The notes under the pieces are model-generated. The model searched no databases and was not told the DNA's origin. It saw nothing but the letters and a program-made list of their open reading frames with translations. The position numbers were made by a program, and so were the translations under genes. A stretch of DNA of 64,000 nt, from NCBI RefSeq assembly GCF_057098645.1, contig NZ_CM169472.1. The stretch is one strand, 5' to 3'. Shown piece by piece: positions 38,949-47,180 of the stretch. Within the stretch, counting starts at the first letter, position 1. The number at the start of each line of letters is the position of its first letter.

Positions 38949-40505
38949 TTACTCATCTTCATCGTGCGCCGGTTGCTCTTTAACAATGCGAACCAGATCA
39001 ACACGATAATCATTGGCTTCAATGATGGTGATATGCAGTGGCCCTACATCAATCACATCGCCCACACGGGGAATGTGACCATTTGCCGAGATCACGAGGC
39101 CCGCGACCGTCGCGATATCATCGTCATCGGCAAGGTGCTCAACATCAAGCGCCTGCTGCAAGGCATGCAAATCTGTACCGCCTTTTACCAGCCAGCCGTC
39201 ACCATCAGTAATGATTTCCGGCGTTTCGTCAGCGTCCGGGAATTCACCCGCAATGGCTTCCAGCACATCCAGCGGCGTGACCAGACCTTGTACCACACCA
39301 AACTCGTTGGTCACGATAACAAAGCTCCCGCGAGCACGACGCAGCACGCCCAACAGGTTGATCGGATCGAGGGTTTCCGGGACGATAATCGCCGGAGACG
39401 CCGAAGCAATCGCCGCCACATCAACGCCCTCTTCCAGCGCCACCAGCAGTTCTTTAGCACGTACGATTCCGATGATTTCATCCAGTTCACCGCGACATAC
39501 CGGGAACAGGCTGTGCGGTGAGGAGAGCAGCTGCTCGCGGATTTCATCGACCCCGAGATTAGCGTCAACCCAGCTTATTTCACCGCGCGGCGTCATGATC
39601 CCGCGCAGAGAACGCGACGCCAGCGTCAGTACGCCGTTAATCATGTAACGTTCTTCTTCGGCAAATGCACCTTCCGGGATCGGCATCGGCATCGGGTTAT
39701 CGGCATCGTGCTGAACATTGGCCTGACGTTTCCCGCCCATCAAACGCAGGATGGCATCGGCAGTACGCGCTCGCAGCGGCAAAGTCGACTGGTGACGAAT
39801 AAAGTTGCGACGCGCAATCTGGTTAAACACTTCGATGATGATCGAGAAGCCAATCGCGGCATACAGGTAACCTTTCGGAATGTGGAAACCGAAACCTTCT
39901 GCCACCAGACTCAGACCAATCATTAACAGGAAGCTCAGACAGAGCACCACCACCGTGGGGTGCTGGTTAACAAATCGCGTCAGCGGTTTGGATGCCAGCA
40001 ACATAACCGCCATCGCAATCACTACCGCCGCCATCATCACCGGCAGATGGTTAACCATCCCTACTGCAGTAATTACCGCATCCAACGAGAAGACGGCGTC
40101 AAGGATGACAATCTGTGTGACGACCACCCAGAAACTGGCGTAGCCTTTACCGTGGCCGGAATCATGATCGCGGTTTTCCAGCCGTTCATGCAGTTCGGTT
40201 GTTGCTTTGAACAGCAAGAATATCCCCCCGAACAACATAATCAGGTCGCGTCCGGAGAAGGAGAAATCCATGACGGTAAATAGCGGTTTGGTCAGCGTGA
40301 CCATCCATGAAATCAGCGACAGCAGCCCCAGACGCATAATCAGCGCCAGTGATAACCCCAGTAAACGCGCTTTATCGCGTTGTTTTGGCGGCAGTTTGTC
40401 AGCAAGAATGGCGATGAAGACCAGGTTATCGATACCCAGCACAATTTCGAGAACAACAAGCGTGAGTAGCCCCGCCCAAATTGAGGGGTCCATTAAGAAT
40501 TCCAT
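38949..40505 (-). CDS. yoaE: TerC-family / CBS-CorC membrane protein YoaE
   Basis: 518-aa ORF recognised as YoaE. Confidence 0.9.
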
Positions 40506-40967
40506 GACAAGCTCCTGCTTAAGGAATAGCTATTCGACGCCAGAAATAATGCAGGCGTAACGACAAAATGCAAACGAAAGGTGCGGCATAGAGTGCCAGA
40601 AAGGCAGGCGTTAAAAGGCCTGATGCTGAAATGACGTCGGTGACGATCCATACTGCGGGCTACTGCCCTATACTCCATGGTTGTTAAACGGGAGTTTAAC
40701 ATATCAGAGACGCCTCTGATTTGGCAAAGATTTACCTTCCTTTGCAAACGAATGTGACAAGGATATTTTACCTTTCGAAATTTCTGCTAATCGAAAGTTA
40801 AATTACGGATCTTCATCACATAAAATAATTTTTTCGATATCTAAAATAAATCGCGAAACGCAGGGGTTTTTGGTTGTAGCCCTTATCTGAATCGATTCGA
40901 TTGTGGACGACGATTCAAAAATACATCTGGCACGTTGAGGTGTTAACGATAATAAAGGAGGTAGCAA

Positions 40968-43720: not shown

Positions 43721-44179
43721 ATGACAATCACGGACCTGGTACTGATTCTTTTCATCGCCGCACTCCTGGCCTTCGCGATCTACGATCAGTTCATCATGCC
43801 CCGCCGTAACGGCCCCACCCTGCTGGCAATTCCTTTGCTCCGGCGTGGTCGCATCGATAGCGTTATCTTCGTCGGATTGATTGTCATTCTTATCTATAAC
43901 AACGTCACGAATCATGGCGCGCTAATAACAACATGGTTATTAAGTGCACTGGCTCTGATGGGTTTTTATATATTCTGGATCCGCGTTCCGAAGATCATCT
44001 TTAAACAAAAAGGTTTTTTCTTCGCCAATGTCTGGATTGAATATAGCCGAATCAAAGCGATGAACTTGTCGGAAGATGGCGTGTTGGTGATGCAATTAGA
44101 ACAGCGTCGGCTGTTAATCCGCGTTCGAAATATCGACGATCTGGAAAAAATTTATAAGCTTCTCGTATCAACTCAATAA
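43721..44179 (+). CDS. yobD: UPF0266 membrane protein YobD
   Basis: 152-aa ORF recognised as YobD. Confidence 0.85.
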
Positions 44180-44195
44180 CTTATGAATTTAGCCA

Positions 44196-44236
44196 AAGCT
44201 ATGTTTAGTGTATTTTTAATAATCAGACATAGCTTA
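44196..44236 (+). promoter_or_regulatory. Inverted repeat AGCTATGT...ACATAGCT upstream of mntP, candidate MntR operator
   Basis: Half-sites resemble the MntR box (AAACATAGC/GCTATGTTT) as recalled; spacing is wider than canonical. Confidence 0.35.
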
Positions 44237-44374
44237 GGCTATATTATCTCTTCCCTTATTTGTTAATTATATTAACGTTTCATTGATATATAAATCTAAA
44301 TGAAAATCGTTATCAATAAAGCAATGAAATAATATATTCCAACAGTTGTTTTATATTCTCAAAATATGTTAAGG

Positions 44375-44500
44375 TTGCGCCCTCATTTGGGGAGTAGCCG
44401 ATTTCCAGATTCCGGAAATGTACGTGTCAACATACTCGTTGCAAAACGTGGCACGTACGGACTGAAGACTTTCAGTCAGGCGAGACCATATGCACATCAA
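44375..44500 (+). ncRNA. yybP-ykoY family Mn2+ riboswitch in the mntP leader
   Basis: Signature TTGGGGAGTAG at 44388..44398 and a downstream GAGAC..CATA element, about 220 nt upstream of the mntP ATG; boundaries approximate. Confidence 0.6.
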
Positions 44501-44608
44501 TCGCTATGCCTGCATGAACGCGAAAACCCATCGCGGCTTGTTGTTCATGTATGCATGTTTGCTGGGGGCGATGATGTGTTTTATGGATATCCCGGTCAGG
44601 ACGTTGTC

Positions 44609-45175
44609 ATGAATATCACTGCTACTGTTCTTCTTGCGTTTGGTATGTCGATGGATGCATTTGCTGCATCAATCGGTAAAGGTGCCACCCTCCAAAAACC
44701 GAAATTTTCTGAAGCATTGCGAACCGGCCTTATTTTTGGTGCCGTCGAAACCCTGACGCCGCTGATCGGCTGGGGAATGGGCATGTTAGCCAGCCGGTTT
44801 GTCCTTGAATGGAATCACTGGATTGCGTTTGTGCTGCTGATATTCCTCGGCGGGCGAATGATTATTGAGGGTTTTCGTGGCGCAGATGATGAAGATGAAG
44901 AGCCGCGCCGTCGGCACGGTTTCTGGCTACTGGTAACCACCGCGATTGCCACCAGCCTGGATGCCATGGCTGTGGGTGTTGGTCTTGCTTTCCTTCAGGT
45001 CAACATTATCGCGACCGCATTGGCCATTGGTTGTGCAACCTTGATTATGTCGACATTAGGGATGATGGTTGGTCGCTTTATCGGCTCAATTATTGGGAAA
45101 AAAGCGGAAATTCTCGGCGGGCTGGTGCTGATCGGCATCGGCGTCCAGATCCTCTGGACGCACTTCCACGGTTAA
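44609..45175 (+). CDS. mntP: Manganese efflux pump MntP
   Basis: Start ATG 44609 ([10 protein letters not shown]) gives 188 aa; ORF-track start 44366 reads through the leader. Confidence 0.9.
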
Positions 45176-45981: not shown

Positions 45982-46075
45982 GACAACTCCGGCAGGATAC
46001 TAAAGGCCGCAAGTGTAACGCGAATCACGCGGCGGGCAAATATCCGAACGCCAGGAGCGAAGATAAAGCATAGTA

Positions 46076-46102
46076 AAAAGCCTCGCATTCGACGAGGCTT
46101 TA
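46076..46102 (-). terminator. Rho-independent terminator after cspC
   Basis: AAAGCCTCG...CGAGGCTTT with a T-run on the minus strand. Confidence 0.65.
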
Positions 46103-46146
46103 TAGCGAGATTGAAGCGTATTCACACTTCAGATCAGTGGATTCGA

Positions 46147-46356
46147 TCAGATAGCTGTTACGTTAACAGCTGCCGGACCTTTCTGGCCGTCCTGAATTTC
46201 GAACTCAACGTTCTGACCTTCAGCCAGAGTTTTGAAGCCATTACCCTGGATAGCGGAGAAGTGTACGAACACGTCTTTGCTGCCATCAGCAGGAGTAATG
46301 AAGCCAAAACCTTTAGACTCGTTGAACCACTTAACCTGACCTTTAATCTTTGCCAT
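46147..46356 (-). CDS. cspC: Cold-shock-domain protein CspC
   Basis: 69-aa ORF with [15 protein letters not shown] motif. Confidence 0.95.
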
Positions 46357-46368
46357 TTGAAAAATTCC

Positions 46369-46512
46369 TTAGATTGTTTTCTTCGCCCGCAGGCATAACA
46401 TAGATAAAACTGACACATTACTGCATGAGGCACCAATATAAGGCTCGGCAGAGAAGCGGTATTCAACGTCAACGTGTTTACTCAGGACTTCTTTACTGAA
46501 AATGCCACACAT
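46369..46512 (-). CDS. yobF: Small protein YobF (47 aa), upstream of cspC
   Basis: Hand translation gives [47 protein letters not shown]; the ORF track shows only a longer overlapping frame. Confidence 0.7.
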
Positions 46513-47180
46513 AAACAGAACTGTACCTCGTTTAACCCGAAATCTGTTATCACATACAACGTTAATTATGGCAAGCCATTTTTAAACATGTCTCGATCAG
46601 ACGCACAAATCTCGATACGTCTTCCACTTTTTTTGCACACTTATGCAACGGAATACGCGCCGATATATCATTGTGCTTAACCTTGCCAGTTCAGGCAGAT
46701 ACTTAAACTGGCGTAGTTTCTAACATAGTTCAATAAGTTCAGTTGTTCCAGGCCAGTGGGAGAAGTTATTACATAGTGCGTGCAATATCACATTTTCTGC
46801 TATGCAATGAATAAAAAGTTATATCACTTTTTCTCATAAAACAGGCAGTTAACGGCTATCAATCACCCCAAAGAGAAGTCAATCCCAAAGGTATTGGAAA
46901 TTTAAAATAAGAAAAAATGATGAATAAGCAAAAAAATCAAGAGAGAAACGTTTCGCTAATAAATAATACCACGCTTAATCACAAATCCGATGTAAACATC
47001 CTAATAAATTAATGAGGAAAATATCTTTTTCTGATATCCCGTTACGCAAATAAATAATATGATAATTATTTGAAGTCAGACCAGAGTTTTAATTTGAAGC
47101 AGTTGCACCATGACAGTGCGTATAATCAGGATGAATTGAGTAACCCTTCAACGACGGGGTTACTCAAGATTGAGGAAGGA

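Follow-up and report, generated by a model that had tools for sequence, protein, structure and literature searches.

Tandem predicted MntR operators upstream of a yybP-ykoY manganese riboswitch at the mntP gene of an Escherichia coli chromosome

The region preceding mntP in the window (the whole stretch of DNA analysed here, 64,000 nucleotides or 64 kb) is almost certainly the native regulatory region of this Mn2+ exporter gene, with MntR operators located upstream of a riboswitch. Dual control of mntP by MntR and a riboswitch is already known and has been described since 2011-2015, with later refinements concerning alkaline pH, Rho and co-transcriptional folding. The binding of MntR and Fur was reportedly mapped in Waters 2011 and Dambach 2015, and the 5' UTR of K-12 mntP (yebN) is likewise said to have been described as a Mn2+ riboswitch in Dambach et al. 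2015. The gene is a textbook example of a metal exporter placed under both a metalloregulator and a metal-sensing riboswitch, and the copy in the window carries essentially the K-12 sequence. The original prediction of two-layer Mn control (transcriptional and riboswitch) stands with regard to the MntR operators and the riboswitch, both as published, but it counts too few layers, as Fur, H-NS and Rho are published participants as well.

Judged from its sequence matches, the window is E. coli chromosome. A 601-base region around the mntP leader was matched in 5,422 of the 5,426 complete E. coli genomes, with O145:H28 strains closest at 99.8% identity; the yobD-mntP spacer is likewise present in 5,422 of 5,426, and the leader is 99% identical to that of K-12 MG1655. 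In the RefSeq annotation the gene order is yoaE, yoaL, manXYZ, yobD, mntP, rlmA and cspC/E, with the yobD stop codon at 44177-44179. The start of mntP had been claimed at ATG 44609 rather than at the beginning of a 269-aa ORF (44366..45175 in the ORF listing), and both the 188-aa RefSeq product and the Pfam Mntp domain agree with this claim. The longer ORF was rejected as the mntP product, being a mechanical artefact that arises because the listing extends to the first ATG upstream (RefSeq start 44609, 188 aa). The features discussed below are as follows, in window coordinates:

44185..44206, no strand assigned: predicted MntR operator 1, an imperfect palindrome with the core TTAGCCAAAGCTAT at 44189-44202, one mismatch to ATAGC-N4-GCTAT
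44225..44246, no strand assigned: predicted MntR operator 2, a perfect palindrome with the core ATAGCTTAGGCTAT at 44229-44242
44296..44314, plus strand: Fur-box-like element CTAAATGAAAATCGTTATC, agreeing with 14 of the 19 positions of the consensus GATAATGATAATCATTATC
44345..44382, plus strand: conserved block GTTGTTTTATATTCTCAAAATATGTTAAGGTTGCGCCC, putatively the promoter, nearly invariant in 14 Enterobacteriaceae
44384..44492, plus strand: predicted yybP-ykoY Mn2+ aptamer, four-way junction (RF00080, 42.0 bits, E = 5.7e-10; covariation)
Within the aptamer: P1, 44384-86 with 44490-92; P1.1, 44388-90 with 44486-88; P1.2, 44397-99 with 44479-81
Within the aptamer: L1, 44391-96 plus 44482-85; L3, 44427-36
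Within the aptamer: P2, 44401-06 with 44414-19; P3, 44420-26 with 44452-58; upper P3 helix, 44437-40 with 44445-48; P4, 44460-66 with 44471-77
44486..44608, plus strand: expression platform, comprising the anti-P1.1 helix, the Escherichia/Citrobacter hairpin, the platform hairpin and AGGA
44486-44505 with 44567-44586, plus strand: anti-P1.1 helix, including CCAUA with UAUGG
44506-44556, plus strand: hairpin specific to Escherichia/Citrobacter, from leader comparison
44561-67 with 44590-96, plus strand: platform hairpin from RNAalifold, 7 pairs, 3 of them compensatory
44598-44601, plus strand: Shine-Dalgarno-like AGGA, with the platform hairpin ending just 5' of it
44490..44612, plus strand: 40-codon ORF in the leader, probably no gene, annotated in RefSeq as 'hypothetical protein' in O145 strains
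44609..45175, plus strand: mntP coding sequence, Mn2+ exporter, 188 aa (RefSeq annotation; Pfam Mntp PF02659, E = 1.7e-55)
40493-40651, minus strand: yoaL, 52 aa (Pfam YoaL, 9.5e-41), overlapping the start of yoaE

For the transcriptional layer, reference operators were taken from the promoter regions of K-12 mntH (aaaacATAGCCTTTGCTATgtttc) and mntS (cagatATAGCACAGGCTATattat, plus a second site adjoining it), in both of which the common core ATAGC-N4-GCTAT is found with 0 mismatches. Upstream of mntP the same core occurs with 0 mismatches as cagacATAGCTTAGGCTATattat at 44229-44242 and with 1 mismatch as tgaatTTAGCCAAAGCTATgttta at 44189-44202. Operator 2 is the sole perfect core within the 64-kb window, and together with its flanks (CAGACATAGCTTAGGCTATATTAT) it is near-identical to the mntS operator CAGATATAGCACAGGCTATATTAT. 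Cores with at most one mismatch number four in 64 kb where 1.44 are expected, a weak excess by itself; because the one-mismatch motif is not rare, the support for operator 1 comes from adjacency and conservation. Of 14 Enterobacteriaceae leaders, 13 have operator 2 with a perfect core, and operator 1 is found with at most one core mismatch in 10 of the 12 Enterobacteriaceae leaders other than the window and K-12. In most Enterobacteriaceae both keep a constant distance to the aptamer, while the intervening DNA varies; neither was found in the leaders of Providencia or Arsenophonus. Both sites are predicted to be MntR operators conserved across Enterobacteriaceae, with centres 40 bp apart and roughly 150 and 190 bp upstream of the putative transcription start.

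Both 8-mers that had been read as an MntR-like palindrome (AGCTATGT, 44197-44204; ACATAGCT, 44227-44234) are present and match the mntH/mntS motif, but they do not constitute one operator: the pair corresponds to the inner halves of two sites, the right one of operator 1 and the left one of operator 2. Two adjacent ATAGC-N4-GCTAT palindromes were preferred over a lone operator with a spacer of 22 nt, which was rejected. Published regulators of mntP are MntR, as an activator, and Fur (PMC11647493; PMC8632737), with MntR-dependent induction reported as well in PMC9603457, and two tandem conserved operators would fit cooperative, high-threshold activation.

The same inverted repeat might instead be viewed as an RNA hairpin that terminates or stabilises the yobD transcript, rather than as protein-binding DNA. 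Its arms extend to 19 nt (44186-44204 and 44227-44245), are 89% complementary and enclose a loop of 22 nt, the repeat begins 7 nt past the yobD stop codon, and weak hairpin-type Rfam matches were obtained on both strands (mir-282 at 27 bits, far under its gathering score of 55). Such a role is nevertheless very unlikely, as each 19-nt arm is itself palindromic and matches the MntR operators of mntH and mntS, a property unnecessary for a hairpin, and as the half-sites are conserved across genera while the spacer between the sites is not. In addition, the stem is A+U-rich with no T-run after it and was not flagged by the terminator scan, and MntR-dependent activation of mntP has been published (PMC11647493). 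The reading as two MntR operators is therefore preferred.

The DNA upstream of the promoter is AT-rich (G+C 22-27%). Amid this divergent AT-rich DNA, the block TAAATGAAAATCGTTATCAA (44295-44314) is nearly invariant across Enterobacteriaceae and covers the Fur-box-like element. No site in the window was found at up to 3 mismatches from the Fur consensus, and ten sites, including 44296-44314, score at least 14/19, so that the score alone is not distinctive; the element is a conserved, putative Fur site, the Fur regulation of mntP itself being published. The block at 44345-44382 probably holds the promoter, with a -10-like TAAGGT at 44370-44375 and TG just before it, although the assignment of this hexamer is of low confidence. 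We infer a transcription start at about 44383, since this position fits the published transcript numbering (A11 in L1 and A48 in L3) as well as the lengths given for folding of the platform helix (~175 nt) and for switching (~205 nt) (PMC12153347). A simple sigma-70 consensus scan did not pick the 44345-44382 block, and the matches that it did return were rejected as the mntP promoter, as they disagree with the published numbering. According to a review, MntR and Fur activate by displacing H-NS from the AT-rich region (PMC8632737), and both the operator distances (~150 and 190 bp) and the 22-27% G+C fit this view.

For the leader itself, a yybP-ykoY signature with conserved downstream elements had been claimed before ATG 44609, and the analysis bears this out. 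The signature TTGGGGAGTAGC occurs once in 64 kb, at 44387-44398 (0.17 matches at up to one mismatch in shuffled sequence), and is followed by GTCAACATAC at 44426-44435 and GAGACC at 44482-44487. The aptamer lies 117 nt upstream of mntP, i.e. in the 5' leader of a metal-exporter gene. Both L1 strands (5' GGGGAGUAG at 44389-44397 and 3' GAGACC) and the L3 loop GUCAACAUAC at 44426-44435, in which an adenosine coordinates Mn2+ (PMC12153347), are invariant in the alignment of 16 Enterobacterales. From the K-12 aptamer there is one difference, the P4 loop base G44467 (T in K-12).

The predicted four-way-junction fold is supported by strong covariation. The structure (P1, P1.1, P1.2, P2, P3 with its upper helix, and P4) was written on the E. 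coli sequence and its pairs were counted. Across 16 Enterobacterales leaders, standard pairs occupy 96.3% of cells, as compared to 25-45% in slid controls, and compensatory changes are seen in 18 of the 33 aptamer pairs. A search for the exact pattern GGGGAGTAGC, N12-42, GTCAACATAC in one genome per species recovered at least 120 loci, with an mntP homologue ~170-225 nt downstream in 35 of 121 aptamer matches (among the matches listed). A covariance model built from the 16-leader alignment was then used to align 100 matches from diverse phyla. Among 99 diverse sequences 94.1% of cells pair, versus 32-45% with the partner slid, and 944 cells show changes on both sides, in an alignment that is fitted to the model and consequently favours the structure. 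With filters off, a search of the entire window with this purpose-built model gave 44376-44498 as the sole match. In Paraburkholderia sediminicola, two RF00080 aptamers (77.1 and 70.5 bits; 1512-1979 of the fetched record) were observed back to back on opposite strands, one of them leading into an mntP homologue, which amounts to a divergent pair of Mn2+ riboswitches.

For the expression platform, the MFE folds of all eight leaders considered (the window, K-12 and six non-Escherichia orthologues) have P1.1 open and the anti-P1.1 helix formed, the P1.1 3' strand and the bases that follow it (44486-44505, CCAUAUGCACAUC...) being paired with 44567-44586 (...GAUGUGUUUUAUGG). In 16 species this helix is 91.1% paired with 6 compensatory pairs, versus 25-53% when slid; CCAU and AUGG are invariant in the 16 leaders, and the fifth position of CCAUA and of UAUGG is kept in 12 and 15 of them, respectively. 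The helix was specified by hand, as RNAalifold on the platform gave the short hairpin only. This platform hairpin crosses the anti-P1.1 helix, and the two therefore do not coexist as nested structures. Co-transcriptional probing of the K-12 leader places folding of the platform helix at ~175 nt and an alternative pairing of the P1.1 switch helix at ~205 nt, at which length L1 and P1.1 stay intact only with Mn2+ (PMC12153347). With +1 at ~44383, a length of ~175 nt reaches the 3' end of the hairpin at 44506-44556 and UAUGG emerges at ~205 nt, and the anti-P1.1 helix is consistent with the published probing. When P1.1 was enforced in ViennaRNA folds, the Shine-Dalgarno region was still paired in some species, and simple thermodynamic folding alone does not, in these models, reproduce the ON state.

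The ~50-nt hairpin at 44506-44556 was found only in the leaders of Escherichia and Citrobacter, those of Enterobacter, Lelliottia, Pluralibacter and others being without it. Rho-dependent termination occurs in the leader and the early mntP coding sequence and is partly relieved by Mn2+ (PMC11647493), and the hairpin could make the leader a Rho or pausing substrate in Escherichia/Citrobacter alone; its candidate roles may include pausing, Rho loading or merely an extension of the anti-P1.1 helix. Nested within it is a terminator-like hairpin (44519-44535), after which comes GCTTGTTGTT. As a separate observation, the L1 bases AGUAGC (44393-44398) are perfectly complementary to GCUACU (44621-44626) in mntP codons 5-6 and pair with them when the leader and the early coding sequence are folded together (MFE); most Enterobacteriaceae retain GCTAC, which could simply reflect Ala-Thr codons.

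The 40-codon ORF in the leader begins at an ATG in the 3' strand of aptamer P1, and its stop codon overlaps the mntP ATG as ATGA, the 1-nt insertion of this allele relative to K-12 being what extends a short leader ORF up to the start of mntP. If it were translated, P1 formation, being Mn2+-dependent, would gate initiation, and ribosomes that terminate on the ORF would re-initiate at mntP and keep Rho off the leader. A translated leader peptide that couples ribosomes to mntP in this manner would agree with the existence of the ORF and its ATGA overlap, with its RefSeq annotation and the presence of its exact sequence on at least 1,000 E. coli contigs, with the use of an overlapping leader peptide, YoaL, by the neighbouring yoaE (PMC12421838), and with the action of Rho on the mntP leader (PMC11647493). 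It is highly improbable all the same. In K-12, where the riboswitch works (PMC12153347; PMC11647493), the ORF is frameshifted and truncated by a 1-nt deletion relative to the window. Outside Escherichia none of the leaders has the ATG, which is replaced by ATAG or ATTG, ~50 nt of the ORF body is missing, and the frame across the conserved platform differs between genera, such that neither start codon nor frame is conserved. Upstream of the ORF there is no good Shine-Dalgarno sequence, its product has no Pfam match, and the literature search returned no publication connecting a uORF with mntP. With the K-12 frameshift, the non-conservation and the lack of a family match against it, the 40-aa ORF was rejected as a real gene and probably reflects an artefact of annotation, although a lineage-specific function retains a small chance. 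There is only a slender chance that an extra, strain-specific control layer exists here, be it a uORF gated by Mn2+-dependent P1 or a Rho/pausing hairpin confined to Escherichia/Citrobacter.

For the Rfam assignment, the scan of the whole window at gathering score gave four matches and none to RF00080: the overlapping sRNA pair SraC/RyeA and SdsR/RyeB (62020-62164, plus and minus strands), a cspA-type thermoregulator leader on cspC/cspE (46072-46532, minus strand) and sroD (26937-27022, minus strand). A permissive E-value scan of 44100-44700 placed RF00080 at 44381-44477 (E = 5.7e-10), its 42.0 bits falling short of the gathering score, 45. The original prediction had named the lack of an RF00080 match above threshold as its refutation; taken literally such a match is lacking, by 3 bits, but the test is too strict and the result is not evidence of absence, as the gathering cut-off is a curated annotation threshold and not a biological feature. 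The shortfall arises mainly because the alignment to the 177-position Rfam 15 model carries a ~70-position deletion in the final hairpin; it also breaks off at 44477, leaving the 3' L1/P1 strand (AGGCGAGACCAU) uncovered. The cut-off is passed (45.4-61.4 bits) by orthologous mntP leaders of Citrobacter, Pluralibacter, Lelliottia, an Enterobacter, Mixta, Providencia and Arsenophonus, which makes the shortfall a feature of the threshold rather than of the element. Together with the covariation and the near-identity to K-12, these orthologues are the reason why the sub-threshold score is not taken as a refutation. That the aptamer is a decayed, non-functional relic, as the missing match at gathering score and the equally sub-threshold orthologous leaders of E. 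albertii and E. cloacae might suggest, is exceedingly improbable, as the conserved L1 and L3 bases are all intact, all helices pair and covary, the low score is largely the effect of the model deletion and the omitted 3' strand, and a single loop base separates it from the K-12 aptamer, which is experimentally Mn2+-responsive and has been crystallised (PMC12153347; PMC11647493; PMC9603457).

By its sequence, then, the leader element is a yybP-ykoY Mn2+ riboswitch, with Mn2+ binding and switching taken from the published K-12 sequence. In K-12, the mntP 5' UTR acts on translation as a yybP-ykoY Mn2+ riboswitch, crystallised in the apo form (PDB 4Y1M; PMC12153347), and its Mn2+ response is also described in PMC9603457 and PMC11647493. 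Neither of the two RefSeq records examined annotates a riboswitch at the mntP leader. A validated, crystallised riboswitch that lies 3 bits under the Rfam cut-off in Escherichia indicates that 'no hit above threshold' is unfit as a refutation.

A mechanism can be proposed in which both layers contribute. At the level of transcription, the sequence elements identified here, namely two tandem MntR operators sharing their motif with mntH/mntS, an adjacent Fur-like box and an AT-rich stretch upstream of the promoter, would be bound by Mn2+-MntR and Mn2+-Fur, relieving H-NS silencing, with MntR binding and the role of H-NS taken from the literature (PMC8632737). At the level of translation, the roughly 226-nt leader would open with the yybP-ykoY four-way-junction aptamer. 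The aptamer fold and the alternative helix come from the present analysis, while Mn2+ binding, the direction of regulation (Mn2+ turns translation on) and the role of Rho come from published work. Mn2+ bound between loops L1 and L3 would hold the P1.1 switch helix shut, and mntP would be translated. When Mn2+ is lacking, the P1/P1.1 3' strand would be captured by the platform strand, opening the aptamer core and keeping translation low, and untranslated mntP transcripts would then be cut short by Rho. The geometry by which the ribosome-binding site would be hidden, the promoter hexamers and the identity of the Fur site are the putative parts of this scheme.

Compared with other MntR targets, mntP shares with mntH and mntS the ATAGC-N4-GCTAT inverted repeat, and with mntS also the arrangement of two neighbouring sites, which however are spaced 40 bp centre to centre at mntP and 19 bp at mntS. 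MntR represses mntH and mntS from sites near the promoter, whereas it activates mntP from sites ~150 and 190 bp upstream, reportedly by countering H-NS (PMC8632737). The mneP and mneS genes of B. subtilis resemble mntP in that the exporter is activated by Mn2+-MntR via several boxes upstream, and full induction takes all of them (review, PMC8632737); unlike mntP, mneP belongs to the CDF exporter family and has three boxes and no riboswitch, and the likeness is drawn at the level of arrangement.

Among riboswitches, the closest counterpart is that of K-12 mntP, with the same locus, four-way junction, P1.1 switch helix and platform as in the window. The window allele differs by an extra C in the platform hairpin (44523-44529 region) and a few substitutions, changes that turn a short leader ORF into the 40-codon ORF abutting mntP. 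The E. coli alx element (PRE), which lies outside the 64-kb window, is likewise a translational yybP-ykoY riboswitch controlling a Mn2+ exporter (PMC12153347; PMC9603457). In contrast to mntP, its junction is three-way and its L3 divergent, its response to alkaline pH runs through elevated Mn2+, and its target is a TerC-family rather than an MntP-family protein (PMC12153347).

The adjacent yoaE had been described as TerC-family and free of a yybP-ykoY motif in its leader, and both statements are upheld: Pfam finds TerC, CBS and CorC domains in YoaE, and neither Rfam at E <=10 nor the purpose-built model with filters off detected a yybP-ykoY motif in the yoaE leader. Published work describes YoaL as a leader peptide for mgpA (yoaE) with a link to Mg2+ (PMC12421838); control of this TerC-domain transporter next to mntP therefore lies with a peptide rather than a yybP-ykoY aptamer. 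A small-ORF overlap at a metal-transporter start that recalls yoaL/yoaE is also seen in K-12, where ypeD (2188-2277 of the fetched mntH-region record) overlaps the mntH start codon and contains the mntH MntR operator core (2224-2237). Like the mntP leader, YoaL/yoaE represents upstream control of a cation-transporter gene, with a small ORF overlapping the start of the main gene; the mechanism there is peptide-based and Mg2+-linked, whereas at mntP it is an RNA aptamer.
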